Part shown: positions 1,600 to 49,766 of the stretch, one piece after another
How positions within the stretch are numbered: the stretch's first letter is position 1
Layout of the letters: every line of letters begins with the position of its first letter
Assembly (NCBI RefSeq): GCF_004010195.1
Contig: NC_057755.1
Coordinates: forward strand, 11,370,351-11,423,138
Reading direction: 5' to 3'
From: Chiloscyllium plagiosum
Taxonomy: Eukaryota
DNA length: 52,788 nucleotides
The notes under the pieces: generated by a model
The model's input: only the letters and a program-made list of their open reading frames with translations
What the model was told of the DNA's origin: nothing
Databases searched by the model: none
Translations under genes and position numbers: made by a program

Positions 1600-2300
1600 G
1601 TTAAAAATCACACAACACCAGGTTATAGTCCAACAGGTTTAATTGGAAGCACACTAGCTTTCGGAGCGACGCTCCTTCATTCGGTGATTGTGGAGGGCTC
1701 GATCATAACAGAGAATTTATAGCAAAAATTTGCAGTGTGATGTAACTGAAATTATACATTGAAAAATTAACTGTCTGTTAAGCCTTTCATCTGTTAGAAT
1801 ACAGTGATAGTTTCACTTCTTTCATGTGTAAATCACAAAACCCTTTTTTTAAAGTTGCATTCTCGGGTTAGCTGTTAACAATGGTGATAGCTAGACAATA
1901 TGTTGAAGTGTTAGCCCCCCCGTGTTCTCTGTCTATGACCTGATGTTTAGATTGATTCTAATCTAAAAAGTGAGATAACAGAGTTTTACATAAATTCATG
2001 CAGTTTTTGAGCTCAGAGTTCTACATGAATTTTTGCAGTTTTTGAGCAAAGTGCAATGTAACTCTGCAAGTACAAATTCACCCCACAAAATATATGTGTG
2101 CATGTGCGTCTTTGTCTGTCTGTGTGTGTGTGTCTGGGGTAGGGGTTGTGAGTGTGAGAAAGTGTGTGTGTGTAGTGAGTACAGAGTGTCTTAAGTCTGT
2201 GAGGGGGTGCATGTGTGGGAGTGTGTGTGTCTATAAGGGTGTGTGTGGGTGTCTGTGTGCGTGTCTGTGTGTACCTGTGTCCGTGTGTATGTGAGATTGT
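1600..2300 (-). mobile_element. Penelope-like element terminal repeat (family with AAAAATCACACAACACCAGG end) with (GT)-rich microsatellite
   Basis: The same terminus recurs at 7278 and 19076. It carries a hammerhead-like motif at 1652-1686 and a TG-rich tract at about 2090-2295. Confidence 0.6.
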
Positions 2301-3436
2301 CACATGTATGCAATGTTTTCTCGCTCAGAAGGGAACTTCTGGATGAATTCTTGTTTTCCCAGTATAGTGAAATTCCCGATAGTGTACATGGCTCTGGGAG
2401 GTTCCCTTTTCAATCTGGGAGATGATGGATATGTCACCCACTCCTGCCTGGTGGACAGTTAGAGGAACTGAAGGAACTCTCGTTCAGTTAATGTTGCAGT
2501 GTCACCAAGCACAGTATATAATGTTGGTGAATACCCACTCTCCTGGCAGCAGCCACAGCCTCTTCATTCAGAAGCAGTCAGCCATTTCCATCGTCTTCGG
2601 GTCTCCATATAGAAAGAAAGGATAAAGACCATCCCTTTGATACACAGCTCAAACAGTTTCTCCCTAATTACTCCCCGCTACCAACCAATCACATCAAAGT
2701 ATCCCATGCGTACTGAGAACAATGGAGCCACTGGGAACATCAGGGAGCAGACCGTCAGGCAGATGGAGCAACACTTCCGATATCTGAATGGGTCAGAGTG
2801 AACACTCCAGTAGACACTGTATCACCAAGTCCTACAATCTCTCTCCATTTCAGTAGCATTCTGACTTCCATTGTTCCTGAAAAACAAAACATGACAAGTG
2901 ATATCACATTATATTGCACCTGCCAAACTATAATCCATTGACTTTATCTGTTTATATCCATTTCAGACTCACCAATTTCTCTTCATAGTTTAATTTCCGG
3001 CTTCTCTTAATATTATCACCATACTGAGTTGCAGTCCATCTGTTCCACTCCTCCAAATAATTGATATCGATTGTAAATAGTTGTGGATCCAACACCGGTC
3101 ACTGTGTGTCTCCACTTGATGTGTTCTGTCAAATTGATCAAAACTGACTTATCCTGAGTATCTGTTTGATAACCAGTGCCCCATCTACTTCCCCTCCCCC
3201 ATTCCTCTACAGCACGTTGGAAGGGTTGAATATGAACGAGGCACATCAGTCTGCAATTCAGGCCCTCGAGCCTGCTGCACCATTTAATGTGATCATGGCA
3301 GATGTCGGCTCGGCCTCAGTTCCACTTTCCTGCCTGCTCTCCATATCCCTTCATTTGCTCATTGTCCCAGCTTCCACTACATTCTGGAGTAAGGAATTTG
3401 AAACAATTAGGTTATCCTCACCCCTGTTTTAAATAG

Positions 3437-3680
3437 AGTCATAGAGATGTACAGCACGGAAACAGACCCTTTGGTCCAACCTGTCCATGCCGACCAAATA
3501 TCCCAACCCAATCTAGTCCCACCTGCAAGCACCTGGCCCATATCCCTCCAAACCCTTCCTATTCATATACTCATCCAAATGCCTCTTAAATGTTGCAATT
3601 GTATCAGCCTCCACCACTTCCTCTGGCAGCTCATTCCATAAATGTACCACTCTCTGTGTGAACAAGTTGCCTCTTTTATA
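3437..3680 (-). mobile_element. CR1 LINE 3' end fragment
   Basis: AGAGTCATAGAGATGTACAGCACGGAAACAG is the reverse of the (GACTCTAT) tail; a similar copy is at 48420. Confidence 0.7.
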
Positions 3681-3756
3681 TTTTTAAATCTGCCGAACCC
3701 TGTCCTAAAAGTATGATCTGGATGTAAGTTTGCTCGCTAAGCTGGAAGGTTCGTTT

Positions 3757-3796
3757 TCAGACATTTCATCACCATATGAGTTAATATCATCAGTGA
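3757..3796 (-). ncRNA. Degenerate type I hammerhead ribozyme motif in a Poseidon-type PLE terminal repeat fragment (about 3710-3810)
   Basis: Minus strand reads UCA-CUGAUGA-U-AUUAAC ucauau GGUGAU-GAAA-UG-UC-UGA. Helix I UCA/UGA pairs; helix II and the palindrome are decayed. Confidence 0.5.
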
Positions 3797-3804
3797 GCCT
3801 CCGA

Positions 3805-4258: not shown

Positions 4259-4276
4259 GACAACCATTAGTTGCAT

Positions 4277-4579
4277 GCACGGTGGCATAATGGTTAGCCT
4301 TGCTGCCTCACAGTGCTGGAGACCTACCTTCAATTCCCGCTTCTGGCGACTGACTGCGTGGAGTTTGCACATTCTCCCTGTGTCTGCGTGGGTTTCTTCT
4401 GGGTGCTTCGGTTTCCTCCCACAGTCCAAATATGTGCAGGTTAGATGAATTGGCCATGCTAAATTGTCCGTAGTGTTAGGTGAAGGGGTAAGTGTAGAGG
4501 GATGGGTTGCTCTTCGGCGGTCGGTGTGGACTTGTTGGGCCGAAGGGCCTGTTTCCACACTGTAAGTAATCTAATCTAA
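4277..4579 (+). mobile_element. HE1-type tRNA-derived SINE
   Basis: tRNA-like head with A/B boxes, conserved core TGGAGTTTGCACATTCTCCC, CR1-like tail GGCCGAAGGGCCTGTTTCC and (AATCT)n. Confidence 0.85.
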
Positions 4580-5320: not shown

Positions 5321-6880
5321 TATATCTCACCCAAATCTACTATCAATCTCCCCAGAGCTCACATCACTCAGATTCCATTGAATCTGGGAAGGTGGAGGTT
5401 AGAAACAGCAAGGAGAAGCAAACATTGGTGGGAGTTATATATCAAAGTCAAAGTTGCAATAGAAATGTTGGGCATGTTACAAAATAGGAAGTTGGATGTA
5501 CAAGTTTATGGGTACTGCAGTAATAAGGGATGAACTCAAGTTACATCTGAACTGTGTTAACCCAAGTGAATGCTAATGCTGGGGAAAATGTATTTCATGA
5601 GGTGGTTTGTTATAACAATATGTTGTTGTGTGATCAGAAGAGCTAATTGAAAACCTTGCTGCAAAGGAGTTTTTGGGAGTAGTGATTATAATATATTGAA
5701 TTTTATAGGATGCATGAATATAAAATGGATTTTGTTCATTTTCGAAGTTCCAGTCATAAACCATGAAGGTGTGAAGGGCAGGTTGGCTTCAGTGAGTTGG
5801 AAAAGTACATTAAAAGATTTAATGAAAGACAGACATTATCTGTTATTTATAGAAACACTGTAAGATGAATAATATACAAATATCCCTCCAAGGTGCTAAC
5901 AGAAAAGGTAAAGATGATTAAGAAAAGAAGTTAAAGATTGCATTAGATCAAAGAAAGCAGCTTATAAAACTGCCAGACATTGCGGTAAGCCAATAGATTC
6001 ACAGAAATTAGGATGCAGCAAAAGAGGGCTAAGACGTTGATAAAATCAAAAAGAGAACATGAATACAAACTAACAGGAAACATAAATACGTCTGAAAAGC
6101 TTGCATTCAAATTTCAAAGGGGAAATAAATGCAAGGCTAAATGTGGAAAAGTGAATGAACGGACAGAATAATTTATTATAGAGAATAGAGAAATACAGGG
6201 AAACGCAACAGTAACTTTGTGTCTGTCTTCATGGAGGAAAATCTCCCAGAAATCCCACGTGTCCATGGGACTTGTGTAACTAAAGACTAAAATCATTCAT
6301 GTCAGCAACTAAGTAGTTAAAAATCACACAAACCAACCGACTCCCACAGCTACCTGGACTACACCTCCTCCCATCCTGCCCCCTGTAAAAACGCCATCCC
6401 ATTCTCCCAATTCCTTCGTCTCCGCCGCATCTGCTCCCAGGAGGACCAGTTCAAAATACGTACAACCCAGATGGCCTCCTTCTTCAAGGACCGCAATTTC
6501 CCCCCCGACGTGGTCGACGGTGCCCTCCACCGCATCTCCTCCACTTCCCGCTCCCCCGCCCTTGAGCCCCGCCCCCCCAACCGCCACCAGGACAGAACCC
6601 CACTGGTCCTCACCTACCACCCCACCAATCTCCATGTACAGCGCATCACCCGCCGTCACTTCCGCCACCTCCAAACAGACCCCAGCACCAAGGATATATT
6701 TCCCTCCCCTCCCCTATCAGCTGTCCGTAGAGACCACTCCCTCCGCGACTCCCTTGTCAGATCCACACCCCCCACCGACCCAACCACCACTCCCGGCACC
6801 TTCCCTTGCAACCGCAGGAGGTGCAACACTTGCGCCCACAGAACAGCACAGCAGGTCAGGCAGCATCTAGGGAACAGAAG

Positions 6881-6916
6881 ATTCGACGTTTCGGGCACAT
6901 GCCCTTCTTCAGGAAT
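6881..6916 (-). ncRNA. Minimal type I hammerhead ribozyme
   Basis: Minus strand reads AUUC-CUGAAGA-A-GGGC augu GCCC-GAAA-CG-UC^GAAU, with intact core and 4-bp helices I and II. Confidence 0.8.
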
Positions 6917-7183: not shown

Positions 7184-7219
7184 ATTCCTGAAGAAGGGCC
7201 TGTGCCCGAAACGTCGAAT
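7184..7219 (+). ncRNA. Minimal type I hammerhead ribozyme
   Basis: AUUC-CUGAAGA-A-GGGC cugu GCCC-GAAA-CG-UC^GAAU; predicted cleavage after C7215. Confidence 0.8.
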
Positions 7220-8279
7220 CTCCTGTTCCCTGGATGCTGCCTGACCTGCTGTGCTGTTCCAGCAATAAAGTTTCAACAAAAATCACACAACAGCAGGTTA
7301 TAGTTCATGGGGTTTATTTGGAAGTAAGAGCTTTCGGAGTGTTTCTAAATGTACTTGTATAGTAGCTGTATAGATGGACTATAGCCTGTTGTATGATTTT
7401 TCACTTTGCCCACCACAGTCCAATGCTAGCACCTTGACATCATGGCAACCTGCGATGAGGTAATACTTGAAAACATAACCGGATTGAGGATTTAAAAGTC
7501 TGAACGAGCAGATGGACTTCATACCAGGATTTCGGAGGAAGTAGCAATAGATGAATGCATTCTATTGGGGGTCACTATGCTATTTTTGAAACATTCTGCA
7601 AAAGCAAAAAACTATTCTGGATAAGAAGGTTACAAACGTAACTCAACTAGTTTAAAAGGGAAGGAGAGGGAGAGTGACGAACTGCAGACCAGTTAACTTG
7701 TCACCTGCAGTAAGTAAAGTGTTGTAATCTAATATAAAGGATGTGATATTGGATATTTAGAAAGTAATAGTGAAATTGTAAAGAATGATAATGCATCTCT
7801 GCAAAGAATCATAACTGGCAAACTTTTGTTGAAATTGTTTGAATATATTTCTTGTAGACATAGGCAATGGAGAATCACCGGATGTGGTACAGCCAGATAG
7901 TCAAGGGGATATTTTTCAGAACTCACACAGTGAATTAATACGTAAAATTTAAATGAAGGGTATCAGGATGTACATTGCAAACTGAAATGTTAAAGTGAAT
8001 TTGACCTTCAATTTAAAGAGATTCGGAATATAGAAGTAAAGACGTCCTGTACCAATCGCAGTTGGTGAGACTGTGCCCAGAGTATTGTGTACAGTTTTGG
8101 TGTTCCAATACAAGAAAGAATGTACTGAACACAAAGGAAATATAATGGAATTACTGTAGATTAATGCCCTAGACAGCAAGAATGAGGAAACTCGGTCTGT
8201 TTTGTTGAGAGTTTCAAAGAATAAATGGTAATCACAGTAAAACTAAGCAAATTCACACAGAGGGGACTAATACAGGGTC

Positions 8280-9950: not shown

Positions 9951-9989
9951 GATGGCACCAGAGTTATGTGGTTTGTTTATGGAAGGGAG

Positions 9990-13391: not shown

Positions 13392-13490
13392 GAGTTTTGA
13401 GAAGATTTGTAGCTCAGATTAGGGTTTTGGATGTAGGTTTGCTCGCTGAACTGAAAGGTTCATTTCCAGGCGTTTAGTTACCTTACTAGC
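13392..13490 (-). mobile_element. Poseidon-type PLE terminal repeat fragment
   Basis: TTGAGAAGATTTGTAGCTC..GGTTTGCTCGCTGA matches the ends at 20870-20935 (reverse) and 29935-30000. Confidence 0.6.
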
Positions 13491-16516: not shown

Positions 16517-17265
16517 CAAGGTTAGAGTGGTGCTGGAAAAGCACAGCAGGTCAGGCAGCATCTGAGAAGCAGGAACATTGATGCTTCAGGCAAAAGCCCT
16601 TCATCAGGAATGGAGGCAGGGAGCGTCCAGGGTGGAGATTTAAATGGGGGTAGAGGGGTGGGGAGAAGTAGCAAAGAGTACAATAGGTGAAGTGGGGTGG
16701 TGATGGAGGTGATAGGTCAGAGAGGAGGGTGGAGGAAGGTAGCAAAGAGTAGAATGGGTGGAAACCCCACATACGGGGGGATTCCACCCATTCTACTCTG
16801 GCACAGTGGCACAGTGGTTAGCACTGCTGCCTCACAGCGCCAGAGACCCGGGTTCAATTCCCGCCTCAGGTGACTGACTGTGTGGAGTTTGCACATTCTC
16901 CCCGTGTCTGCGTGGGTTTCCTCCGGGTGCTCCAGTTTCCTCCCACATTCCAAAAAAAATGTGCAGGGTAGGTGAATTGGCCATGCTAAAATTGCCCCTA
17001 GTGTTAGGTAAGGGGTAAATGTAGGGGTATGGGTGGGTTGCGCTTCGGCGGGTCGGTGTGGACTTGTTGGGCCGAAGGGCCTGTTTCCACACTGTAACGT
17101 AATCTAATCTAATCTAATCATTCGAGACACCACCCAGGCCCTCCACCTCCTTCAAGACTTCCGGTTCCCCAGCCCCCAACTCCTCAACTTTGCCATGGGC
17201 ATCCAATCCCTATACACCTCAATCTGCCATGACCAGGGCCTCCAAGCCCTCCGTTTTTTTCCTCA
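16517..17265. mobile_element. Neptune-type PLE insertion (minus pLTR plus RT fragment) with nested SINE
   Basis: GTGGTGCTGGAAAAGCACAGCAGGTCAGGCAGCATC terminus; 17119-17265 encodes IRDTTQALHLLQDF..IQSLYTSICHDQGLQALRFF (PLE RT motif A region). Confidence 0.75.
16800..17119 (+). mobile_element. HE1-type SINE, full length, young
   Basis: GGCACAGTGGCACAGTGGTTAGC..GGTTCAATTCC boxes; (AATCT)4 tail. Confidence 0.9.
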
Positions 17266-18614: not shown

Positions 18615-18828
18615 GGTACTGCAGACATTGGAGATTCGAGGCAAGATTAGAGTGGTGCTGGAAAAGCACAGCAGGTCAGGCAGCATCCGAGGAGAAGGAA
18701 AATCAATTTTTCGGGCAAAAGCCCTTCATCAGGAGTGAGGTAGTGAGCCTCGGGGTTGGAGAGATAAATGGGAGGGGGGGTAGGCTTAGGGGTTGGTAGC
18801 TGAAAGTGGAATAGGTGGATGGTGATTA
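18615..18828 (-). mobile_element. Neptune-type PLE terminal repeat fragment
   Basis: Same terminus as 16517; decayed hammerhead CTGATGAAGGGCTTTTGCCCGAAA on the minus strand. Confidence 0.75.
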
Positions 18829-19075: not shown

Positions 19076-19280
19076 TAAAAATCACACAACACCAGGTTAT
19101 AGTCCAACAGGATTCTTTGCAAGCACTAGCTTTCAGAGCACTGCTCCATCATTAGGTGGTTGATAAAGGAGCAGCATTCCAAAAGCTCGTGCTCCCATGT
19201 AAACATATTAGACTATAAACTGGTCTTGTGCAATTTTTAACTTTGTGCACCCCAGTTCACACCAGCATCTCCAAATCATG
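19076..19280. mobile_element. Fold-back unit made of two inverted PLE terminal repeats (family of 1600)
   Basis: TAAAAATCACACAACACCAGGTTATAGTC at the left end; GACTATAAACTGGTCTTGTGCAATTTTTA at the right end; centre lies at the decayed hammerhead core. Confidence 0.7.
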
Positions 19281-19929: not shown

Positions 19930-20125
19930 TTTAGTACACTGCTCCTCCAATATGATATGCAGCTCTCATTCACACAGGCAGGTTTGGAATGTGATGTCTT
20001 TGGAACCTGGTTGACTTGTTGCAGTAAATTTTATAAATACTGCGCATTTTCCCCACTGTGCTTCGATGGAGGGTGTGCATTCTGGAGATCTTAGATGAAA
20101 TGTTGGTCAAGCATGTCCTGGATGT
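19930..20125 (-). mobile_element. L2/CR1-group LINE C-terminal fragment
   Basis: MHTLHRSTVGKMRSIYKIYC resembles the SLHHRR.VA..C.IYKMHC motif of such LINEs. Confidence 0.4.
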
Positions 20126-20129
20126 TGCA

Positions 20130-20935
20130 TCAAGACACTGTTCAAAAGGGCCACAACACACTGCAGCACACCAGAACTGCAAAAAGAGGAAGAGGAACAC
20201 CTATACAAGGTATTCGCAAAAAACAGATATCCTCGCAATTTCAGCAACAGATGCCTAAGGGAGAGACAACAGAACGAGGATATGCCGCAATCCAAAGGAC
20301 TAGCCACACTACCATACATCAAGAACATCTCGGAAATGATAGCCAGAATACTGCGACCACAGCACACAAACCAGCAGCCACTCTCAGACAACAACTCACC
20401 AAAACGAAGGACCCGATACCCAGTATGAGCAAAACTAACGTAGTGTACAAAATCCCATGCAAGGACTGCACAAAACATTATATAGGACAAACAGGAAGAC
20501 AGCTAACGATTCGCATCCACGAACATCAACTAGCCACGAAACGACACGACCAGCTATCCCTAGTAGCCACACACGCAGACGACAAGGAACATGAATTTAA
20601 CTGGGACAACACTACCATTATAGGGCAAGCGAAACAAAGAACAGCCAGGGAATTCCTAGAAGCTTGGCACTCATCCACAAACACCATCAACAAACACATA
20701 GACCTGGACCCAATATACCGGCCACTACAGCGCACAGCTGAAACTGACAACCGGAAGCGGCAGGGACAGACCACTATAAATGCCGGAGGAAACACCACAG
20801 AAGCGCTTCACAGGAGGCTCCCAAGCACTGAGGATGTCACCTAGACAGGGGACGAAACGTTTGCAACAAAAACTTCCAGCTCGGCTAACAGAACCACAGC
20901 AACGAGCACCCGAGCTACAAATCTTCTCACAAACT
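20130..20935 (+). mobile_element. Poseidon-type Penelope element, 3' part with intact GIY-YIG endonuclease frame and terminal repeat
   Basis: NVVYKIPCKDCTKHYIGQTGRQLTIRIHEH...AREFLEAWHS...INKH. The true frame runs from about 20360 to 20844; upstream sequence is frameshifted. Confidence 0.92.
20825..20864 (+). ncRNA. Minimal type I hammerhead ribozyme
   Basis: GCA-CUGAGGA-U-GUCACC uagaca GGGGAC-GAAA-CG-UU^UGC; one mismatch in helix II. Confidence 0.7.
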
Positions 20936-25963: not shown

Positions 25964-26129
25964 TCCGCACCACTACCGACGCCACGGGTTTTTAATATAA
26001 AAATCGCAAGTTACAGGTCAATCTCTTCACCTGAAGTTGGAGCAGCACTCAGAAAACTTATGATTTCAAACAAACCTATTGGACTATAACCTGGAGTTGT
26101 GTGGCAACACCAACACCTCTACGTACTGT

Positions 26130-29035
26130 CGTTGAGCCCTACAGTGCAGAAGACCCTTGCCACAAAACTGGTCCATGCTGATCAAAATGTGCATCCATGC
26201 TAACCCCATTTCCCCGCATTTTGTCCATATCCTTCTAAACCTTTCCTATCCACGTATTCATCAAAATGCCTTTTTATTAGGAGAAAGTGAAGACTGCACA
26301 TGCTGTAGGTTATAATCGAAAAGTGTGGTGCTGAAAAAATAAGCTGGTCAGGCAACATCCAAGGAGCAGGAGAGTTGACGTTTCAAGCATGAACTCTTCA
26401 TCAGGAATTATGGGGTATCCAAGGGGGCTGACAGCTAAATGGGTGGATGGTGGGGCTGGGGGAAGGCAGCTGGGAAATAGGTGGAAGATGAGAGGTGATG
26501 GTGGTAGGTCAGGGAGAAGAGTAGAACGGATAGGTGGGGAGGTAGATGGACAGGTAGGACAGTTCAAGAGGGTGGTGCCAAATTAGATGGTTGGATCTGG
26601 GATAAGGTGGGGAGAGTGGAAATGAAGAAACTGGCGAAATCGACATTGATGCCGTGTGGTTTGAGGGGCCCAAGGCTGAAAATGAGTCTTTCTTCCTCCA
26701 GTTGTTGGGTGGTCAGTGTTGGCAAGTTAAATTCTTCAGCCACAGAGCAGTGGCATTATTTAGCGCGTGGCCTAGAGCTGGTCTCTGAAGCATTCCGCAA
26801 GTTGGCATCCTATCTCCCCAACTTAGAGGAGACCACATCAAGAGCAATGGACACAGTTGATGACATGTGTGCAACTATAGGTAAATCTCTGTCAGACTGT
26901 GGTGAGTAGGTGTGGGCGCAGGTTTTGCACTTCTTGCGGTGGCAGGGGAAAGCGCCGGCAGTGAATGGTGGGTTGGTGGGGTGGGGTGGGGGGGGGGGGG
27001 GGGGGGTTGTGGATTAACGCAGGAGTCATGGAGGGAATGGTCTCTGTTGAACTCAGATGAGGTGGTGAGGGACATATGTCTCTGGTCGTAGGGTCTGTTT
27101 GGAGGTGACGGAAATGGCGGAGGATTCTTCCCCACCATTTATCTCTCAGCCCCCTTTGGCCATTCCTCTCATTCCTGATGAAGAGCTTATACTTGAAATG
27201 TCTCCGAATCCTCGGATGCTGCCTGACCAGCTGTGCTATTCCATCACCACACTTTTCGACAAATGCCTTTTAAGTGTTGTTAACGTACCCACCTCAACCA
27301 CTTTGGCTGGCAGCTCATTCCACATGCGTGTGCACAAAACGTTTGTCTCAGGTTCCTTTCATTCTTTCCCTTCTAATCTTAAATGGATGCCCTCTAGCCC
27401 TTGATTCTCCAACTGTGTGAAAACGACTGAGTGTTGTCACCCAATGCATGCCTTTCTTGATGTTATATATTACTACAAGGGATTCCCCCCTCCATCTCCT
27501 ACACCCTAAAGAAAACAAATCCTAAGTTGTCCAATCTCTTGCTGTAACTCAGGCTGTTGGGTCCAGACAACGTCCTTGTAAATTTAATTTCACTCTTTCC
27601 AATTTAATAACGTCCTTCCTATAGCACGGTGACGAAAAAATAAATACAATACTGCAACTGGGCCTCACTAATGTGTTGTGCGACTACAACATAACTTCCC
27701 CACTTCTATGCTCAGTGCGCTGACTGATGAAGGCCAGTGTGTCAAAAACCTTCTTCACTGCCCTGTCTACCTGTGAGACCAATTTCAGAGAACTTTGCAT
27801 CTGAACTACAAGGTCTCTTGCTTCACTACACTCCTTGAAGCCCTACGATTCACCAAGAAACATCTGCCTTGATTTGACACTCCAAAATATAAGATATCAC
27901 AATTATCACACTTGCCATTTCTTGGCCGACTTCTCCAGCTGATGAAGGTACTGCTGAAATTTCTGGTAACCTTTATCATTATCCAGAGTATATCCAATTT
28001 TAGTGTCATCTGCAAGATTACTAATCATGCCATGTACATTCTCATCCAAATCATGCATTTAAATAACAAACAGCAATGGGCGCAGCACCTACCCATCTAC
28101 TAATCACAGACCACCAGTCCAAAAATTATTCTTTCACTATTACCCTCTGCTTCCTATCTTCAAGTCAATTCTATGTCTAATTTGAGAGCTCCTCCTGAAT
28201 TCCATATGACCCAACCTTCCAAAGCAGCCTACAATCTGGAACCGTATCAAAGGCCTTACTGAAATTTGTATAGATGATGTCTACCGCTCTGCCCTTATCA
28301 ACCTTCCTTGTCACTTCACCAAAAAAATCTAACAAATTTGTAAGGCATGATCTCCCACACACAAAGCCATGTTGACTAGTCCTAATGAAACACTCTCTTT
28401 ACAAATGTATGTATATCTTTTCTCTAAGAGTCCTCTCAAGTATCTAACCTACCACAGATGTTAAACATACTGATCTATGATTCCCAGGTTTTTCTCTGGG
28501 GCGCTTCCTGAATAAGAGCACATTTGTTACGCTACAGTCTTCTGAGAAATCGCCCGTGGCCATTGATGATGCAAAAATATCCAACCACGTCCCCCTCAAT
28601 GTCTTGTCTAGCCACTTGCAGTGTTGTTAGATATTTCTGTTCAGGACCAGGAGATTAATCCACCTTCATATATTCTAATACATATGAAACCTCCTCTACT
28701 GTATATGGGCTGTCTCCAAGACATGACCACCAACTTCCCAAGGTTCCAAAGTCTTTCTTCACAGTAAGCACAGAAGAGATATATTCATTGTGGATTTCGC
28801 CCACATCCAGCAGTTCTCCACATACGTGTCCGCTTTGGTCCTTGAGCGGTCCTAGTCTCTTTCTGTTTATTTATTTCCTTTAATATACTTTGAGAACTTC
28901 TACAGATTCACCCTAATCTTCACAGCCAAGGCTATCTCCTGCTCCTTTTCGCCCTCCTGATTTCCTTCTTCAGTAACTTTCTGTACCCCCATATACCCTG
29001 AGGAACACCCTTGATCCCAGCTCCTTATAGGTGAG
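26130..29035 (-). mobile_element. CR1 LINE ORF2 (RT to 3' end) interrupted by a PLE
   Basis: GRSCLTNLLDFFGEVTRKVDKGRAVDIIYTNFSKAFDTVP (ORF 28177..28362); 3' tail near 26130. Confidence 0.85.
26279..27260 (-). mobile_element. Neptune-type PLE insertion with inverted terminal repeat and 11-bp TSD
   Basis: GGAGAAAGTGAAGACTGCA terminus; GIY-YIG remnant; inverted pLTR at about 27130-27260; AAATGCCTTTT at 26264-26274 and 27261-27271. Confidence 0.8.
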
Positions 29036-31409: not shown

Positions 31410-32665
31410 GTAGATTGCCGAGACTTTGGCTTTGATGTTTTTGTCATCATTGACTACGGGAAACATGCCTGAAGACTGGAAGATAGTAAATGTTGTCCCC
31501 TTGTAGAAGAATGGGAGTTGAGACAGCCCTGGTAATTATGGACCAGTATCACTTAGACTCTAAGCGTTAGCTCTTTTCTCTCCAGAGATGTTGCCAGACC
31601 TGCTGAGATCTTCCAGCATTTTCTCTTTTCCTTTCAGATTCCAGCATCGGCAGTAATTTTCTTTTATCCAATGTTCATCCTGTAGTTCAGTTAATCGTGG
31701 TGTATCACGAGGATCTGTTTTGGATACACAGGTGTTTGTCATTTATACAAATTACCCAGATGAAGGCACAGAAGGGTGAGTTAGTAAATTTTTGGATGAC
31801 ACTAAGGTCGGTGGAGTTGTGAATATTGATATTGTAGGTTACAGAGGGACATAGACCAATAGCAGAGCTGGGCTGAGATTAAGCAAATTGAGTTTAATGC
31901 GGAAAAGTTGTATTCACTTCGGAAGAAGTAACAGGAATGCAGAATAGTGGGCTATTGGTAAGATTCTTGGTAGCATAAATGAACTGAAGTATCTCATTGT
32001 CGATGGACATAGACCCTGAAAGTTGCCAACCAGGTTGATACGGTGTTGAGAAGGTGTGTTAGATTTTATTAGTAGAGGGATCGAGTTTCAGAGCCATGAG
32101 GTCATGCGACAGCTATACAACTTTTTGGTGCGACCACACTTTGAGTATTGCATACAGTTCTGTTCACCGCATTATTGGTTTAGAAGCTTTGGAAAGGGTT
32201 GAGAGGAAATTTACTCCTATGTTGCCTGGTATGGAGGGAATGTCTTAAGAGGAAAGGCTGAGGACTTGAGGCTGTTTTCGATAGAGAGAAGAAGGTTGAG
32301 ATGTGACATAAATGGGAACTATAAGATAATCAGAGGGTTAGATAGAGTGGGCAGTGAGAGTCTTTTTCCTCGGATGGTGATGGCTAGCACGAGGTGATGT
32401 AACTTTAAATTTGGGTTGATAGATACAAGACAGATGTCTGAGAAAGTTCTTTTCTTGCTTAGAGAGCAGTAGGGGCATGGAACAGCCTCCCTGTGGAAGT
32501 AGTAGACTCGACAAATTTAAAGGAATTTAAATGGTCATTGGATAGACATATGGATGAAAATGGAATAGTGTAGGATAGATGCGCTTCAGATTGGTTTCAC
32601 AGTTGGAGCAACATCAAAGGCTGAAGGGCATGTACGGTGCTATAATGTTCTGTGTTCTATGTTAT
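31410..32665 (+). mobile_element. CR1 LINE RT to 3' end (PLE terminal repeat fragment inserted at about 31555-31670)
   Basis: EDWKIVNVVPL, SKFLDDTK, LVRPHFEYCIQF and the TGTTCTGTGTTCTATG tail. Confidence 0.8.
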
Positions 32666-32709: not shown

Positions 32710-33500
32710 GGCAGGTTGAAGGGCAGAGGTGCGGGATGTGGATGAGATGCGTTGGAGGGAATCTTCAACCACATGAGAATGGAAATTGTGATCTCTAAAG
32801 AAGGAGGCCATCTGGTGTGTTCTGTGGTGGAACTTGTCCCCCTTGGAGCAGATACGTCGGAGGTGGAGCAATTGGGAATACGGGATGGCATTTTTGCACG
32901 AGGTTGGGTGGGAAGAGGTATAATCCAGGTAGCTGTGGGAGTCAGTGGGTTTGTAAAAAATGTCAGTGCCAAGTCGGTCTTCATTAATGGATGTGGAGTG
33001 GTCCAGGAAGGGGACGGAAGTGTCAGAGATGGTCCAGGTGAATTTAAGGTGGGGGTGGAATGTGTTGGTGAAGTTGATGAACTGCTCAACCTCTTCGCGT
33101 GAGCATGAGGTGGCGCTGATGCAGTTGTCAATGTAGTGGAGGAAGAGATGTGGAGCATCGCTGATGTAACTACAGAAGATGGACTGTTCTATGTTGCTGA
33201 CAAAGAGACAGCCATAACTGGGGCCCATACGGGTGCCCGTGGCTACCCCTTTGGTCTGGAGGAAGTGGGAAGATTCGAAGAGAAATTGTTAAGGGTGAGG
33301 ACCAGTTCAACAAACGAATGAGAGTGGCAGTGGAAGGGTACTGTTGGGGACGTCAGGAGACGACAAAATGGAGGCCTTGGCTGCCCTGGACATGGTGGAT
33401 GCAGGTGTAGAGGGATTGGGTGTCCATGGTGAAGGTGAGGCGTTGGGGGCTGGGGAAATGGAAGTCTTGTAGGAGGTGGAGGGCGCGGGTGGTGTCTTGA
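32710..33500 (-). mobile_element. Neptune-type PLE reverse transcriptase fragment
   Basis: GVATGTRMGPSYGCLFV...LFLHYIDN (YIDD mutated)...FYKPTDSHSYLDYTSSHP...LRRICS. Confidence 0.92.
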
Positions 33501-34039: not shown

Positions 34040-34735
34040 ATCATCCTCCGTCATTTCCGCCAGCTCCAAACAGACCCCACCACCAGGGATATATTTCCCT
34101 CCCCACCCCTATCAGCGTTCCAGAGAGAACATTCCCTTGGCGACTCCCTCGTCAGGTCCACACCACCCACCAACCCAACCTGCACTCCCGGCACCTTCCC
34201 CTGAAACTGCAAGAAGTGCAAAACTTGCGCCCAAACCTCCCCCCCACCTCACTCCAAGGTCCCAATGGATCCTTCCATATCCATCGAAAATTCACCTGTA
34301 CCTCCACACACATCATTTACTATATCTGCTGCACACGATGTGGTCTCCTCTACATTGGGAAGACAGGTCGCCTACTTGCGGAATGTTTTATGGAACACCT
34401 CTAGGACACCCGCACCAACCAACCCCACTGCCCCGTGGCTGAACACTTTAACTCCCCTTCCCACTCTGCCAATCTTCTTCCCGACCTCTCCGCCCCCACC
34501 CCTTCTCCAGCCTATCACCCTCGCCCTCACCTCCTTCCACCTATCATATTCCCAGCGCCCCTCCCCCAAATCCCCTCCCCCCTACCTTTTATCTCAGCCC
34601 GTTTGGCACACCAGCCTCATTCCTGAAGAAGGGCTTATTCTCCTGCTACTCGGATGCTGCCTGGCCTGATTTGTTTTTCCAGCACCACATTTTTCAACTC
34701 TGGTCTCTAGCATCTTCAGTCCTCACTTCCTCCTG
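34040..34735 (+). mobile_element. Neptune-type PLE 3' fragment with Zn-finger linker and GIY-YIG
   Basis: CKKCKTC; FTCTSTHIIYYICCTRCGLLYIGKTGR; ends with CCTCACTTCCTCC. Confidence 0.9.
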
Positions 34736-35430: not shown

Positions 35431-36830
35431 CTATCTCACCCCATGGCTGTGTAAGGTGGAACTGAGGCCCATTGCTGAGTTCCCCTCACTTCCTTCATTT
35501 CTCCACACTGGACCCTGTTTGAAGGTTCGGAAAAGAAGCATTTTCCCTTCTTTCTCAGTTTTACTTTCGCTCGGTTCATCCCACAACTGGGATACTCTCC
35601 TCAGAACCCGTACCTCATTGTGGATTGGCTCTGTGGAATCGAAGTTCACATACATCTTCCAGGGAAACCAAGATCCTATCCCACTTAGCTGAGTCCGCCT
35701 TAAACAACTGACCCCTGTTTAAGTATCCGTTTACTCACGAAAAGTGCACCCTTAAACGTCTGAAAGTAGCATTCGGGTGTTTCCCCTTTTTCTACCTTCT
35801 TGTTTAACCCATCTATGGGGTTTCCTTCATTGTACCCAATTGCCATTAGAATCACTTTGTTCATATTGGCAAGGGATCTTTCACGTACATTTAGCTGGGT
35901 TGGGATTGCAGACTGCAGTAACTGGCTCAGACACATTATGATAAGTCTTACCTCCTCTTGTTCACCTAAGCCATGATATCTTACCCTTTCAAAGAATACA
36001 AATGGATCAGCCAAAGGCTCAAAATCTGGAACCTTTTTAGCGATTTCTGATAATTGTGCCACTGTGAATGGACTTGTGTAGGTTATTGCTGGGACAGTGG
36101 CATCTGTCTTTCAGTGGTAATTAGATTCATTGCGACAGGAAGCGTCTTCAGGGGTGCCGAAGTAGTTGACTCCTTTGGGAAGGGTCACCCCAATCCTCCC
36201 TGCACATGGCGTCCTGCTGCGTGTCTTCCCTGAGCTCATCCCACTGTACCTCCCGTCCTTCTCCCTTTTTAACTTCTCCATTTGCGTACATTATTGAGAG
36301 TGGGGCTTTTAATTTCTCAATCTCCTGCAGCCACTTAGTGTGGTCTGTGGCTGCCTGTTTCTTCTCCCTATCTGCCTGATGCATTACCTTTTCTGCTGCT
36401 TGTAAATCTGCACCTTTACTTCTTAACTGCCTCACTTCACTCTCAGCAGTCTCTTTACCTGACACTGTGCGCTGGGTGTCCTGGTAAGGTTTCTCACACT
36501 GGGTTTGGAATTGCCCCATATGCAGGTTTGCCTGATTTCTTTGGTCCTGAGTTGCGTTTTTCAGTTGCAACTCAGTTATTTCTTTCTTTGCGTCCTCTAA
36601 TTCTTTATGGACCATTTTCAATTTCTGCTCTGTCCCAACAATTGTAGCACATCATTGCTATGACCTTTAAGTTTGGAAGCCTGCTTCCCTTGAATTTTTC
36701 TGAAATCCTCCCAATAGTTTTGTCCGAGGAATCCTGGACCCTTTTCATCATTACAGCAAAAGTTTGCACATATGGGCCACTTTTTTTACCCCATGGGACA
36801 GTCTTCTACTCTGACACCTTTATCTGCCAT
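35431..36830 (-). pseudogene. Frameshifted gag-like ORF of an LTR retroelement
   Basis: ATG at 36830; coiled-coil segment (36148..36621); capsid-like PFTVAQLSEIAKKVPDFEPLADPFVFF...GETPECY (35700..36062); lies downstream of the PBS at 37462. Confidence 0.65.
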
Positions 36831-37092
36831 TCTCAATTAACTAAGGGGTATGGTGGTATCACTTTTGCTCTGTTCAAGTACTAATCCCACCAACTTTCCG
36901 GTGACTTTAGACATTTGACCTTACCTATTCTACAAGGGACACACACACCTACACACCACATACTTTGTGTCTTAAAGAAGGGCTTTTGCCAGAAATGTCG
37001 ATTTTCCTGCTCCTCGGATTCTGCCTGATCTGTTGTGCTTTTCCCACACCACACTCTCGACACACCCTGTTGGCTTTATGCTTTAATGAACA

Positions 37093-37310
37093 AGAGAAAG
37101 TGAGGTCTGCAGATGCTGGAGATCAGAGCTGAAAATGTATTGCTGGAAAAGCGCAGCAGGTCAGGGAGCATCCAGGGAAGAGGAGAATCGACGTTTCGGG
37201 CATAAGCCCTTCTTCATTCCTGAAGAAGGGCTTATGCCCGAAACGTCGATTCTCCTGTTCCCTGGATGCTGCCTGACCTGCTGTGCTTTTCCAGCAACAC
37301 ATTTTCAGCT
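37093..37310. mobile_element. Fold-back PLE terminal-repeat unit with 90-bp arms and 13-bp TSD
   Basis: Arms 37127-37216 and 37221-37310 with loop TTCC; TSD GCTTTAATGAACA at 37080-37092 and 37308-37320. Confidence 0.9.
37216..37251 (+). ncRNA. Minimal type I hammerhead ribozyme
   Basis: AUUC-CUGAAGA-A-GGGC uuau GCCC-GAAA-CG-UC^GAUU. Confidence 0.72.
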
Positions 37311-37461
37311 TTAATGAACAGGTCAATGTAGATCTTTACTTGAATTCCTAGCCTTTGTGTGGGACAGCTGTCCTTTTTAACCACTGGCTCAGGTAAATTT
37401 AAAGGAATATGAGGGTTCCAAAGGATTCAATAATAGAATGACAAAGTCACTTCTTATTGAG

Positions 37462-37479: not shown

Positions 37480-37482
37480 AAT

Positions 37483-38543
37483 TGTTGTGCCTGCCACAAT
37501 GTATTTTTAACTCTTATATCTAACAATGAAGCTGCAGGTCGACTCTTATTAATAAGAAACAATTATATTTATGTATTTTCCACAACTCTTATAATAAAAA
37601 AAACTTTTTTAAAATGTATAAATCTAATCAATTGTCTTACACTTTAACTTAACTCTGGATGATTATATATCAGCACACTAGATCTTGGCCTTCATCCATG
37701 TGGCAATGATAATCTGATCATATTTTACTGGTGATCTCAGGTGTGTTTTCTCTTCGCTGTGGTTGGTCTTGAGTTACTGTTCCTGCAGGTTGTGTTGTGG
37801 TGATTCTTATACTTAGAAGTCTTCACGTCCATGTGAGAGGGCCTTCGATCTCCACCCTCGATCACGCTGTTGACTTGTCATGACAGGGCATCCATTCCTG
37901 AAAGTGTTTAGATTAGATTACTTACAGTGTGGAAACAGGCCCTTTGGCCCAACAAGTCCACACCGACCCGCCGAAGCGTATGCTACCCAGACCCCTACAT
38001 TTACCCCTTCACCTAACACGACGGACAATTTAGCATGGTCAATTCACCTAACCTGCACATTTTTGGATTGTGGGAGGAAACCGGAGCACCCGGAGGAAAC
38101 CCACGCAGACACGGGGAGAATGTGCAAACTCCACACAGAGAGTCGCCTGAGGCGGGAATTGAACCCGGGTCTCTGGCGCTGTGAGGCAGCAGTGCTAACC
38201 ACTGTGCCACCGTGCTGCCGTGTTGGGGCATGTCGGTCAGGTAGCCCTCTCCAAATAAGGGTGTGAATTGCCCCTGTGTCTGGTCAAGAACACGATGTTT
38301 CTGATTGCCCAGGGGATGGCATTTAGGTCGATTCCAATCCATTCAGATTCAAGTGTATATTGTATTGTCTGCAGCTGCTGGCTCAGTTGTAAACTGTCTG
38401 TAGCTGCAGCCTATCTGGATTCTGCAGCTTGTTTATTTCAGAGTCTTTGAGCGCAATCACTTTTGACCAAAACTTGTCTCAATTTCCAATTTCGTTTACT
38501 CTCCATCATAAGTGCATGATTTTGAGTTGCCCGTTCAGCCACA
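37483..38543 (-). mobile_element. 5' LTR of the gag-bearing element (outer boundary uncertain: 37885 or 38543), with SINE insertion
   Basis: TG start adjacent to the PBS; TATA-like TATAAG on minus near 37806; candidate CA ends at 37885 and 38543. Confidence 0.5.
37909..38215 (-). mobile_element. HE1-type SINE, full length
   Basis: Near-identical to the 16800 and 17677 copies. Confidence 0.9.
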
Positions 38544-38649
38544 CCCATCTGCAAACATGTGATCCCATGAGTAAAGAGCCAAAGTAGGGCATCCGAGGAG
38601 CAGAACAATCGACGTTTCGGGCAGAAGCTCCTCATCCGAAACGTAGATG

Positions 38650-42189: not shown

Positions 42190-42885
42190 TGAAAGCAGGG
42201 GATACCTATACAATTATACTTAATCAGTCATTTCCCTGTTTTTCACTGTATGCGTTCAACTTCATCTATGGTGAAACCACGTTTGTCCTCGCTAATCTTC
42301 TGCTTTTTCACATACTTAAAGGTGCCTTTCCAGTCTGCCTTTTTGTTATTGCATCAGATCAAAGGATGTAGCTTATAACTTGACTAGAAAAAGCGGTAAG
42401 ACTTAGGTATGGGAGTAACTTAGAATCTAGCAAAGGGTGGCCAAGAAATGAAAAGCCAGGGATAGCTATACAATTTTTACTTACTCAGTCATTTCCCTAT
42501 ATACTTTCAACTTGATCTGTTGTGAATGCACGTTTATCCTCGCTAATCTTCTGCTTTTTCACATACTTAAAGGTGCCTTTCCAGTCTGCCTTTTTATTAG
42601 TGCTCTCTTGCATTTTTTTTTTCCTTTTTATTATTTTCTTGGCCACCCTTTGCTAGATTCTAAGTTACTCCCATATCTAAGTCTTACCGCTTTTTCTAGT
42701 CAAGTTATAAGCTACATCCTTTGATCTGATGCAATAACAAAAAGGCAGACTGGAAAGGCACCTTTAAGTATGTGAAAAAGCAGAAGATTAGCGAGGATAA
42801 ACGTGCATTCACAACAGATCAAGTTGAAAGTATATAGGGAAATGACTGAGTAAGTAAAAATTGTATAGCTATCCCTGGCTTTTCA
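42190..42885. repeat. Nested direct and inverted duplication of a CR1-derived segment (X1-Y-X2-spacer-Y'-X2')
   Basis: 42449-42595 is the reverse complement of 42739-42885; 42345-42448 is the reverse complement of 42635-42738. Confidence 0.92.
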
Positions 42886-43257: not shown

Positions 43258-43580
43258 AAAGTTGAAAAAGTGTGGCGCTGGAAAAGCACAGCAGGTCAGG
43301 CAGCATCCAAGGAGCAGGAGAATCGACGTTTTCGGTATAAGCTCTTCATCAAGAATGTGGTTTGTCGGGCTGGGGGGGAATATATCTTGGCAGACAGTAG
43401 GTAGATGCAGGTAAGGGTGTGACGATGATAGGTTGGAGGGGAGGCTGGAGCAGATAGGCAGGAAGGAAGATGGACACGTGAGACAGTTCAAGAGGGTGGT
43501 GCCCATTTGGAGAGTTCGATCTGGGTAAGGGGGGGGGGGGGGGGAGATGAGGAAACTGGTGAAACCTTGTGGCCCTGGAA
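43258..43580 (-). mobile_element. Neptune-type PLE 3' fragment
   Basis: GCTGGAAAAGCACAGCAGGTCAGGCAGCATCC terminus; decayed hammerhead. Confidence 0.8.
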
Positions 43581-45465: not shown

Positions 45466-45977
45466 GCACCGCCACGTGGTTGAACATTTCAACACCCCCT
45501 CCCACTCCGCCAAGGACATGCAGGTTCTGGGCCACTTCCACTCCCACTCCCTCACCAGCTGACGTCTGGAGGAAGAACGCCTCATTTTCCGCCTCAGAAC
45601 ACTTCAACCCCAAGGCATCAATGTGGTCTTCACCAGTTTCTGCGTTTCCCCACCACCCACCTTACCCCAGTTCCAAATTTCCAGCTCAGCACCACCCTCA
45701 TGAACTGTCCCACCTGTCAATGTTCCTTTCCACCTATCCGCTCCACCCTTCTCTGCAAACTATCACCTTTACCACTTCTCCATCCACCTATTGCACTCCC
45801 AACTACCTTCTCCCCAGCCCCACTCCCAAGGCTTCCAGCCTCACTCCTGATGAAGGGCTCCTGTCCGAAGTATCGATTTTCCTGTTCTTAGGATTCTGCC
45901 TTACCTGCTGTGCTTTTCCAGCACAACTCTAATCTTGACTGTCATCTCCAGCATCTGCAGTCTTCATTTTCACCTAG
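45466..45977 (+). mobile_element. Neptune-type PLE 3' fragment
   Basis: RLEEERLIFRL.TLQPQGINV (GIY-YIG C-terminus); ends with CTCCAGCATCTGCAGTCTTCATTTTCACC. Confidence 0.85.
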
Positions 45978-46029
45978 GAGGCAGGTATCAGTCAGCAATA
46001 CTGTGTGTTACATGGAAAACAAATTGCAG

Positions 46030-46770: not shown

Positions 46771-47829
46771 GTTAATTCATCAGCATGGAGATACTCAGCA
46801 GGTGGATGGGAACCTGAATTGTAGCTCCATTGCACAGGAGGTTGAGTTAATAAAGAAGGTTTCAAGGTCGCAGGAGAGTACCAGCAGGCAGGATATTCAT
46901 TTGAAGTGTGTCGACTCCAATGCCAGGAGCGTCCAGATAAAGGTGGGTGAACTTGCAGCATTGTTTGGTACCTGGGACTTCGATGTTGTGGCCATTTCGG
47001 AGAAATGGATACAGCAGGGACAGAATTGTTGCAGGTTCTGGGGTTTAGGTGTTTCAATAAGTACAGGGAAGGTGGTAAAAGAGGGGAAGATGTTGCATTG
47101 TTAGTCATGGACAGTATTACAGTGGCAGAAAGGATGTTTGATGATGATTTGTCTGCTGAGGTAATAAGGGCTCAGCTTAGAAACAGAAGAGGAGAGGTCA
47201 CCCTGCTGGGAGTTTTCTATATGCCTCCAAAAAGCACCAGATATGTAGAGGAAAGGATAGCAAAGATGATTCTCGGTAGGAGTGAAAGTAACACAGTAAT
47301 TGTTATGGGGGCTTTAACTTTACAAACACTGACGGTAAATATGGTAGTTCAAGCACTTTAGATGGGTGATGGGTCACTTTTTATTCAGTGTGTGCAGAAG
47401 GTATGACACAGGATAGAGACGCCCAAGAAGGGGCAAGGACATATTGGGATTTGGTATGGGTAATGAACCAGTGATAGATTTGGAGGTAGTTGAGCACTTT
47501 GCTGAGAGTGATCACAATTCAGTTACATTTACTTTATTAGGGTAAAGTGAGAGGTATATACGGCAGGGCAAGAAGTAGAGTTGGAGATTTAAAGGCAATT
47601 ATAATGCAATTAGGCATGACTTTGGATGGATAGGATGTGGAAGGGAAGTGCAGGGTATGGGCATATTTGAAATGTGGAGCATGTTCACGGAACAGCTTCT
47701 GCGTGTGCTTTATAAGTATGTACCTGTCAGGCAGGCAGCAACTGATTGAGCGAGGGAGTCGTGGTTTACTAAAGAAGTTGATAATCTCTGGCCAAGAGGA
47801 AGAAGAAGGCGGCCTGGTTTCAGTGGAGA

Positions 47830-48090
47830 GCACGGTGGCACAGTGGCTAGCACTGCTGCCTCGCAGTGCCAAAGATCCGGGTTCAATTCCTGCCTCAGGC
47901 GACTGTCTGTGTGGAGTTTGCACATTCTCCCCGTGTCTGTGTGGGTTTCCTCTCACAGTCCAAAAACGTGCAGGTTAGGTGAATTGGCCGTGCTAAATTG
48001 CCTGTAGTGTTAGGTGCAGGGGAATGGGTGCGGGTCGGTGTGGACTTGTTGGGCCGAAGGACCTGCTTCCACACTCTAAATAATCTAATC
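47830..48090 (+). mobile_element. HE1-type SINE
   Basis: A/B boxes, conserved core and TAATCTAATC tail. Confidence 0.88.
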
Positions 48091-48419
48091 TTATGATGCT
48101 GAGACGTGAAGGCTCAGTTAGGGCGCTTGAGAGTTACAAGTTAGCCAGAACGAGAGAGTTCAGAAAAGCCAGGAGGGTTCATGAGAAGTCTTTGGGAGTA
48201 GGATCGAAGCAAACCCTAAAGGTATATCAGAAATAAAAGAATGATTAGAGTTATTAGGGGGAATTTATGCGTGGGTCTGAGGAGATAGGAGAGGAGCTAA
48301 ATGAAAATTTTTGTCAGTATTCACACTGGAAAAAGACAATGTTGTGAAAGAGAATACTGAGATATACACTATTAGACTAGACAGGATTGGGGTTCATAAG
48401 TAGGAGGTGTTAGCATTTG

Positions 48420-49120
48420 TAGAGTAATAGAGGCACAGAGATGTACAGCATGGAAACAGGTCCTTCGGTCCTACCCGTCCATGACGACCAGATATCCCAA
48501 ACCAATCTCGTCCCATCTGCCAGCACCCGGCCCAATGTCCTTCCAACTCCTTCCTATTCATATAATCATTCATATGTCGCAATTATACCAGCCTCCAACA
48601 AATCCTCTGGCAGCTCATTCCATATATGTATCTCCCTCTGTGTGAAACATTTGCCCTTTGGGTCTCAATTATATCTTTCCCTCTCACCCTAAACCTATAC
48701 CCTCTAGTTCTGGACTCCCCGAACCTATTTATCCCTGTCTATTTATCCTATCCATGCCCCGCATGATTTTGTAAACTTCTGTAAGGTCACCCCTCAACCT
48801 TCGGCGCTCCAGGGAAACAGCCCCAGTCTGTTCAGCCTCTCCCTATAGCTCAACTCCTCCAATCCTGGCAACATCCTTGTAAATCTTTTCTGAACCATTT
48901 CGAGTTTCACAACACCTTTCTGATAGGAAGGAGACCTGAATTGCACGCAATATTCTAACAGTGGCCTAACCAATGTCCTGTGCAGCTGCAACATGTCCTT
49001 CCAACTCCTATACTCAATACTCTGACCAATAAAAGAAAGCATACCAAACTATCCTATCTACCTGCGACTCCACGTTCAAGGAGTTATGAACCTGCACTCC
49101 AAGATCTCTTTGTTCAGGAA
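48420..49120 (-). mobile_element. CR1 3' fragment inserted antisense in another CR1
   Basis: LVRPLLEYCVQFRSP..VQKRFTRMLPGLEELSY (ORF 48794..49042). Confidence 0.88.
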
Positions 49121-49570
49121 TACTCCCTTGTGAAAACAGATATTTCCCTAGGGCCGTATGGCATTGATCCTAAGATTCTCCGGCAAGCTAAGGAGATTAC
49201 AGAACCTTTGACTTTGATCTGTATGTTGTCATTGTCGAAAGGAATTGTGTCAGAAGACTGGAGGATAGCAAATGTTGACCCCTTGTTCAAGAAGGGGAGG
49301 AGAGACAATCCTGGTAACTATAGACCAATTGTGGGTAAAGTGTTGGAAAGTGTTATAAGAGATAGGATTTATAATCATCCAGAAAGGAATATGTCGACTA
49401 GGGATAGGCAATACGGTTTTGAGAAGGGTAGGTCATGCCTCACGAAGCCTATTGAGTTCTTTGAGATGGTGACCAAACAGGTGGATGAGGGTAAAGCGGT
49501 TCATGTGGTGTAAATAGATTTCAGTACAGGATTTGATAAGGTTTCCCGCAGTAGGTTATTACAGAAAATA

Positions 49571-49766
49571 GGAGAAAGTGAGGACTGCAGATGCTGGAGA
49601 TCAGAGTTGAAAATGTGTTGCTGGAAAAGCGCAGCAGGTCAGGCAGCATCCAAGGAGCAAGAGAATCGACTTTTCGGGCATGAGCACTTCTTCAGCTTCC
49701 TGAAGAAGGGCTCATGCACGAAACGTCGATTCTCCTGCTCCTTGGATGCTGCCTGACCTGCTGCGC
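49571..49766. mobile_element. Fold-back PLE terminal-repeat unit with two opposed hammerhead motifs and 14-bp TSD
   Basis: Arms 49628-49695 and 49700-49767; TSD TATTACAGAAAATA at 49557-49570 and 49767-49780. Confidence 0.9.

Follow-up and report, generated by a model that had tools for sequence, protein, structure and literature searches.

Hammerhead-bearing stubs of Penelope-like elements in Chiloscyllium plagiosum, probably copied from uncut RNA

Does a genome strewn with hammerhead motifs contain a multitude of active ribozymes, or the remains of a retroelement whose RNA was copied before it had been cut? I addressed this question in a stretch of 52,788 nucleotides from Chiloscyllium plagiosum (NCBI RefSeq assembly GCF_004010195.1, contig NC_057755.1, positions 11,370,351 to 11,423,138, forward strand; hereafter the window). 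It represents 52.8 kb of a 3.56-Gb genome, and its repeat content is rich in fragments of long and short interspersed nuclear elements (LINEs and SINEs) and of Penelope-like elements (PLEs). The window motifs lie in the terminal repeats of three PLE families and are predicted to form minimal type I hammerheads, and the window content is mostly decayed stubs. Overall, I consider it quite probable that these are decayed minimal-hammerhead stubs copied from uncut, likely capped element RNA. The motif is that of Cervera and De la Pena (2014), and the phenomenon has been in print since 2014.

Hammerhead motifs and the elements that carry them

Following up a first-pass annotation of the window, I searched it with a structural descriptor, re-implemented from Fig. 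S7 of PMC4209133, which specifies the CUGANGA and GAAANNUH boxes around helix II and at least three pairs in helix I. The search was extended to a sample of 120 stretches of 10 kb on 17 contigs, which together with the window amounts to 1,169,952 non-N bases (1.17 Mb); sampled stretches and contigs carry working labels (L058, L145, C1). Four window sites match, at 3757 (-), 6881 (-), 7184 (+) and 30007 (-), against two matches in 300 dinucleotide shuffles, and 33 sites match in the 1.17 Mb, against none in reversed or complemented controls. When the helix I requirement is dropped, nine window sites match, eight of them already listed in the first-pass annotation; the ninth, at 27939, has the core and helix II without family flanks and is regarded as chance. 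The sample including the window holds 115 core-plus-helix-II sites, with at least three helix I pairs in 33 and exactly two in 61, and the commonest subfamily fails the descriptor on helix I. One unpaired base separates A9 from position 10.1 in 113 of the 115, confirming the extra base after A9 seen at first pass, and 111 have G at 10.1. Where intact, the helix III palindrome of each family reads ACGU or AGCU; in old copies it is eroded at CpG.

The first-pass annotation had described about 20 minimal hammerheads here. Its coordinates are correct, the five copies that it ranked best read as described, C7215 is the residue preceding the predicted cut site, and each of the remaining 15 positions holds a recognisable family copy. 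All 20 are PLE copies, but only four pass the descriptor; both core boxes and a fully paired helix II are present in eight, and all core bases are kept in ten. Among the five best, three pass, whereas 37216 (two helix I pairs and a U-U) and 20825 (an A-G mismatch in helix II) fail; conversely 3757, which had been called decayed, passes, though its palindrome is lost. Five further remnants had been overlooked, at 7328 (-), 13469 (-), 19188 (+), 26059 (+) and 31549 (+). That such motifs escape standard annotation is borne out, as an Rfam scan of the window up to E=10 returned no hammerhead family; the miRNA-like Rfam matches in the window are the palindromes described below, and all are under the gathering score.

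The division into three PLE families also holds, the motif of each lying in sense orientation downstream of PLE coding sequence. In family A, helix II is GGGC/GCCC, and the motif follows a reverse transcriptase (RT), a CxxC linker and a GIY-YIG endonuclease. Family B has a longer helix II and lies behind a GIY-YIG frame in which no linker was seen, and family C, with helix II GGAGC/GCUCC and palindrome AGCU, lies behind a second linker-bearing frame. The sample adds two further families whose tails are related to that of A, namely D, with helix I AGUU/AACU, and E, with a U3-A8 core. The order of RT, then C-terminal GIY-YIG, is present in fragments with visible catalytic motifs; the Pfam matches are weak and below cut-off (RVT_1 E=0.006; GIY-YIG E=0.017 and 0.065), and no solved structure matched the endonuclease fragment. 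A CX2-5CxxC linker between RT and endonuclease separates Neptune/Nematis from Penelope/Poseidon (PMC8557442), and on this linker criterion alone A and C are classed as putative Neptune or Nematis type and B as putative Poseidon type. The best-preserved copies and the coding fragments near them, with "pLTR" standing for the pseudo-long terminal repeat of PLEs, are:

7184..7219, plus strand: family A hammerhead, intact, with 4-bp helix I and predicted cut after C7215; descriptor match
6881..6916, minus strand: intact family A hammerhead, carried by the inverted pLTR of the insertion that also holds the 7184 copy; descriptor match
6327..6851, plus strand: fragment of a PLE with the RT thumb and CxxC linker, truncated by the inverted pLTR; 72% identical to the RT frame of L145
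30007..30046, minus strand: family B hammerhead, intact, behind a GIY-YIG fragment at 30137-30671; descriptor match
20825..20864, plus strand: family B motif, core intact, helix II mismatch, overlapping the stop of the GIY-YIG frame
20095..20844, plus strand: Poseidon-like C-terminal frame with GIY-YIG motif and no CxxC linker visible (GIY-YIG E=0.017, below cut-off)
3757..3796, minus strand: family B stub, palindrome lost, beginning at the short-copy edge of the family; descriptor match

The helix II mismatch at 20825 is common to a subfamily with three relatives in the sample, and hence does not reflect decay at this site. In eight fetched regions, which contain assembly gaps, I found no long intact element that still had both pLTRs. 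Since such gaps are common in PLE-rich regions (one of ~600 N lies at about 15080-15690 of the window), long elements have probably been assembled incompletely. On L058, which holds the one long copy, the motif and edge lie at 676 and C17 at 708, followed by the tail and by an ATG at 845 that starts an open frame, placing the family A ATG 137 bases behind the cut site.

The very high motif density reported at first pass is a property of the whole genome. Exact matches to the family A core, helix II and two helix I bases number 79,576, those to one descriptor-passing family A subfamily 12,061, and those to family E 2,258 (core positions 3 and 8 being free in that pattern). Sixteen descriptor matches were found in 764 kb from sixteen spread regions; scaling, whether direct or via the family A pattern, suggests, as a rough figure, ~50,000-70,000 descriptor-type copies. 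A region of contig C1 has 12 descriptor matches in 178 kb, and the window is thus unexceptional. Contig C1 also holds an example of family E (C1:1750-1784 (-)), with the U3-A8 core and a self-complementary helix I strand.

I then compared 103 copies of family A. Core positions outside CpG differ in 1-6% of them and those at CpG in 11-22%, and core damage is mostly at CpG sites; the differences between subfamilies spare the core and lie in the tail, at N7, at three bases of loop II and at one of helix I. The first-pass claim that helix I keeps its pairing fails for most of these copies, the third pair being U-U in 81 of the 103 and U-A in 10. Paired double changes number at most two at any pair, and there is therefore little covariation inside family A. 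The claim of covariation does appear to hold between families and among B subfamilies (helix I GCA/UGC, CCA/UGG and UCA/UGA), and for the core of family E, which among the matches listed has A8 in 100 of 100 and U3 in 95 of 100, counted by eye; from A to D, the base of helix I changes from C-G to U-A. Judged from these alignments, there appears to be covariation between lineages, comprising few independent events. It is very likely that active lineages were selected to keep the catalytic fold. The majority of copies in the genome are passengers that decay at CpG; those in palindromes would be locked in long hairpins.

Insertion ends and paired stubs

In order to locate where copies begin, the boundary mapping was anchored on the tail, with the core left out of the query. 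This gave 242 matches, of which 207 passed score and flank filters and 198 remained after removal of nine with N at the junction. Homology ends 30-34 bases before the cut site in 54 of the 198 and 35 bases before it in 3; another 16 end in the 45 positions beyond, and 38 further upstream. In 5 copies the end is no more than 2 bases from the cut site, and in 15 it lies behind this site. The peak, a sharp edge 31-32 bases ahead of the cut site, falls on the first base of helix I, and boundaries do not accumulate at the cut site itself. In the window, the position at which the majority of short copies start is A7184. A further boundary peak, near -87, proved to be a reference artefact, and a "TG" preceding the edge in a few copies did not hold more widely.

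Genome-wide, 9,981 copies have a foreign base directly before the edge and 28,239 have the element's own C there, 4,676 of the latter diverging one base further out. A purine replaces C17 in 934 copies, compared with 753 at a matched CpG position three bases upstream, and there is thus no real excess of copies starting at the cut site. As many copies start just before the fold and few at the cut site, they were likely copied from the start of uncut RNA.

The other families show a comparable arrangement relative to a TATA box. Counted from this box, none of the 45 family C boundaries falls from -4 to +31 and 17 fall at +32 to +44, while none of the 31 family B boundaries falls from -20 to +28 and 4 fall at +29 to +32, placing the B and C edges 30-33 bases behind it; in one family D copy, a TATA box lies 29 bases before helix I. 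The family A edge base is in what I take to be an initiator-like context. The motif lies 4 (A), 7-10 (C) and 18-23 (B) bases behind the edge. The base preceding the edge is G in 56 of 100 copies among the matches listed (by eye), against 27% expected, and in 19 of 39 with unrelated flanks (by eye; p=0.003), although the extra G is partly templated by the inverted arm, making this moderate evidence. A copied cap would leave such an extra G, as known from work on L1. It is likely that the 5' edge is the transcription start.

A number of observations weigh against this reading, and against that of the stubs as a whole. Boundaries lying between the edge and the cut site, inside the motif, make up 67 of the 198; the genome-wide patterns for edge and cut site differ in strictness, so that the ratio between their counts is approximate; and the B and C boundary samples are small. 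The family A box, AT-rich and located at -30 to -32, is a non-canonical TATA. Besides the partial templating of the extra G, the comparison of G with A at the edge and one base further out is not significant (p=0.16). The fold appears marginal, with the weak, mostly U-U helix I of family A and unremarkable folding z-scores (-0.8, -1.9, -1.3 and 0.1); by folding energy, the motifs are not separable from shuffles.

Poly(A) single-cell reads do not bear on the matter. Run X23, which may come from another species, produced 1,743 and 1,742 reads for two stretches. These reads cover both strands, and nowhere do the starts or ends of molecules concentrate; 86 of them have loose ends at 7184, mirroring the genomic junctions, and run X24 gave 0 reads. 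A single-cell library of this kind cannot show 5' ends, and so provides no evidence for or against cleavage.

The arrangement of neighbouring copies is also informative. Among the 207 family A copies, pairs within 700 bp comprise 49 head-to-head, 5 tail-to-tail and 7 direct, and no arrays were seen in the sample; 98 of the 207 belong to head-to-head pairs. In 42 of the 49 head-to-head pairs, one arm has a long tail and the other a short one (p about 2e-7), the tail of ~36 bp being on one arm, and a crude search found a flank duplication of 10-16 bases in 25 of the 49. Many junctions use short homologies. Two such palindromes are present in the window:

37093..37307, unstranded: palindrome of two head-to-head family A stubs, one long tail and one short, flanked by a 13-bp target duplication (37080-37092 and 37308-37320)
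37216..37251, plus strand: family A motif, core intact, helix I of two pairs and U-U; descriptor failed
49571..49766, unstranded: palindrome of two head-to-head family A stubs with motifs at 49664-49695 (-) and 49697-49731 (+), both damaged, flanked by a 14-bp target duplication (49557-49570 and 49767-49780)

The 13- and 14-bp duplications around these palindromes indicate that each is likely one insertion event. The family A long tail ends in a pyrimidine tract (window 37093-37115 (-), L058:785-810); in the one long copy this tract is followed by AG, as in a 3' splice site, and no matching spliced joint was found in the single-cell reads.

Origin of the stubs

A possible sequence of events is as follows. 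The PLE transcript would have its capped start just in front of the hammerhead fold, and the stubs would probably have been reverse-transcribed from uncut RNA to that end. From both strands of the nicked target, the RT would prime at two internal sites located ~63 and 99 bases behind the cut site; the resulting pair of short complementary DNAs (cDNAs) would then run off at the RNA 5' end and join head to head, two steps that I regard jointly as having a good chance of being right. Cleavage is predicted to take place in vivo, a proposal that I favour by a small measure; it would probably be slow, helped by the protein of the element or by a second copy, and would remove a 32-base capped leader. 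Published minimal motifs cut poorly alone (PMC4209133), and cleavage of the anole PLE hammerhead in vitro needed the protein of the element (PMC11167929). The protein of this anole element, PAc, nicks and extends both strands in vitro (Frangieh et al. 2024, PMC11167929).

One challenge to this account concerns the edge itself, which might have arisen not from transcription but from an endonuclease that cuts donor or cDNA at ATT-like sites, from self-priming on an antisense template, or from RT stalling at the folded ribozyme. Two published observations lend it weight, and count against the transcription-start reading: the preferred site of the anole enzyme is ATT (PMC11167929), the bases with which the family A edge starts, and self-priming on antisense RNA has been proposed for head-to-head palindromes (PMC3846280). 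The short homologies at many junctions would fit as well. However, the B and C edges have no initial ATT and still lie 30-33 bases behind a TATA box, an RT moving 3' to 5' should stall on the 3' side of the helix and not after passing the whole fold, and the extra G is also found in unrelated flanks; I therefore consider this explanation unlikely. A still less probable one is that the genome is full of active ribozymes, cutting as dimers through the helix III palindrome and processing both host and element RNA. All families retain the palindrome, two copies of either 7184-7219 or 30007-30046 cofold through it, and a Schistosoma motif has low dimer activity (PMC4209133), but the 4-base duplex is worth only -1.7 kcal/mol, direct tandem pairs number 7 against 49 head-to-head among the 207 copies, and cut-site starts show no excess. 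Half of the window copies have a broken core, and in a head-to-head pair, to which the 98 sampled family A copies belong, a transcript would pair the motif with its own antisense; to speak of self-cleaving motifs, as was done at first pass, is therefore an overstatement.

The third alternative, to which I give the same low probability as to the dimers, is that the motif is conserved as a downstream core promoter or protein-binding site, its likeness to a hammerhead being a catalytically dead relic. It occupies +1 to +36 of the inferred transcript, the region within which downstream promoter elements lie, and the Penelope of D. virilis has such an element (PMC2377424); furthermore, catalytic mutations left insertion in vitro unaffected (PMC11167929), and helix I is weak in the commonest subfamily. 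Nevertheless, the double change from C3-G8 to U3-A8 tracks the ribozyme fold, N7 and loop II vary freely beside a fixed core, and each family pairs different helix sequences. The spacing of the motif to the edge, which differs between A, C and B as given above, is not fixed relative to the start, and this too counts against a promoter function.

Other copies in the window and relation to known elements

The remaining PLE copies in the window are older or truncated:

16576..16611, minus strand: family A motif, decayed, with A15.1 and helix I broken
18701..18736, minus strand: family A motif, core boxes present, palindrome lost, two-pair helix I
26373..26408, minus strand: family A motif, core intact, broken helix I
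27171..27206, plus strand: family A motif, core boxes present, helix I lost
34619..34640, plus strand: family A motif, 3' half deleted, behind a linker and GIY-YIG fragment at 34040-34473
36975..37003, plus strand: family A stub, truncation inside core
38607..38637, minus strand: family A stub, C3 lost
43321..43356, minus strand: family A motif, core decayed
45843..45878, plus strand: family A motif, second core box broken
32713..33499, minus strand: PLE RT fragment, family A type
13466..13483, minus strand: family B remnant, overlooked at first pass
1652..1686, minus strand: family C motif, first core box damaged, TATA box upstream
19124..19191, unstranded: decayed family C motifs in a head-to-head pair, the plus arm overlooked at first pass
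26028..26062, plus strand: older family C variant, decayed, overlooked at first pass
31549..31620, plus strand: truncated remnant resembling family E (the U3-A8 family), core absent

At 7260-7360, a decayed family C stub adjoins the 3' end of a family A copy in opposite orientation. Outside the PLEs, a RING-finger frame at 356-706 (+) (Pfam zf-RING_UBOX, E=7.5e-11) looks like the first exon of a TRIM-type host gene. A large nested inverted repeat at 42241-42885, with arms of 208 and 155 nt that are 95-99% complementary, has a MIR5048 match under the gathering score and is possibly a non-autonomous DNA transposon or foldback. Adjacent frames of 136 and 167 amino acids at 35700-36651 (-) have a coiled-coil look and no Pfam match, and are possibly a broken gag-like or LINE ORF1 remnant. 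The window also holds CR1/L2-like RT fragments, and copies of a SINE-like repeat at 4277-4577, 16801-17109, 17673-17986, 21955-22214, 37908-38216 and 47823-48091.

The motifs described in PMC4209133 share with those reported here the core, the extra base after A9, the G10.1-C11.1 pair, the palindromic 15.2-16.2 and a short helix I, and likewise occur mostly as solo copies from truncated PLEs, with some opposite-strand pairs. The U3-A8 variant, here family E, is shared too; that paper reports it from Schistosoma mansoni, with no vertebrate example mentioned in the accessible text. There are also differences. The commonest subfamily here, with its two-pair helix I, escapes the published descriptor, and the copy number, both the 12,061 exact matches of one subfamily and the extrapolated total, stands against published totals of about 9,000 in Xenopus tropicalis and 4,000 in coelacanth. 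Table S1 and Fig. S3 of that paper include no cartilaginous fish, and no analysis of 5' boundaries was found in its accessible portions.

The closest mechanistic parallel is the Poseidon element PAc of Anolis carolinensis (PMC11167929), in which reverse transcription begins internally at two positions that set the tail, extension takes place on both target strands, and uncut RNA is the main substrate, with no RNA reads beginning or ending at the cut site in the data available from that study. The PAc frame starts inside helix II, whereas the shark ATG lies well behind the cut site, and the PAc data were obtained in vitro, whereas the shark provides a genomic record of tens of thousands of insertions. 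The pLTRs of endonuclease-bearing (EN+) PLEs (Arkhipova et al. 2013, PMC3846280; Craig et al. 2021, PMC8557442) have an optional tail of 30-40 bp, an adjacent inverted copy and a target duplication, and thus share with the stubs the head-to-head inverted ends, the one-sided tail and the target duplications, as well as TATA and initiator-like motifs within the pLTR. Unlike these published pLTRs, the unit here is reduced to ~200 bp, and each arm stops at the hammerhead or within it. Non-LTR retrozymes (bioRxiv 10.64898/2026.07.22.740005), where LTR denotes long terminal repeat, are likewise small and non-coding, carry a type I hammerhead and are related to PLE pLTRs; they are however described as direct tandem arrays, and the stubs, being solo or inverted, are not retrozymes by that definition. 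A search that left subscription papers and Repbase reports mostly outside its reach found no published description of shark PLE hammerheads, of PLE 5' boundaries or of PLE twin priming.

While the motif itself was known, this genome adds scale and a natural record of the mechanism. The role of the PLE hammerhead has been called unclear (PMC8557442). The insertion ends suggest that cut RNA was rarely the template, which supports the in vitro result obtained with the anole element and argues against a simple model of cutting and circularisation. In addition, the families offer natural contrast pairs, namely a 4-bp helix I against one with U-U, and C3-G8 against U3-A8. It may be, and I consider the chances evenly balanced, that the hammerhead is the first structure of a capped PLE transcript, that tens of thousands of strong-stop-like cDNAs, many of them joined head to head following priming on the two target strands, record uncut RNA as the in vivo template, and that the ribozyme would serve as a conditional switch, for decapping or for turning off, rather than to make the ends of the template.

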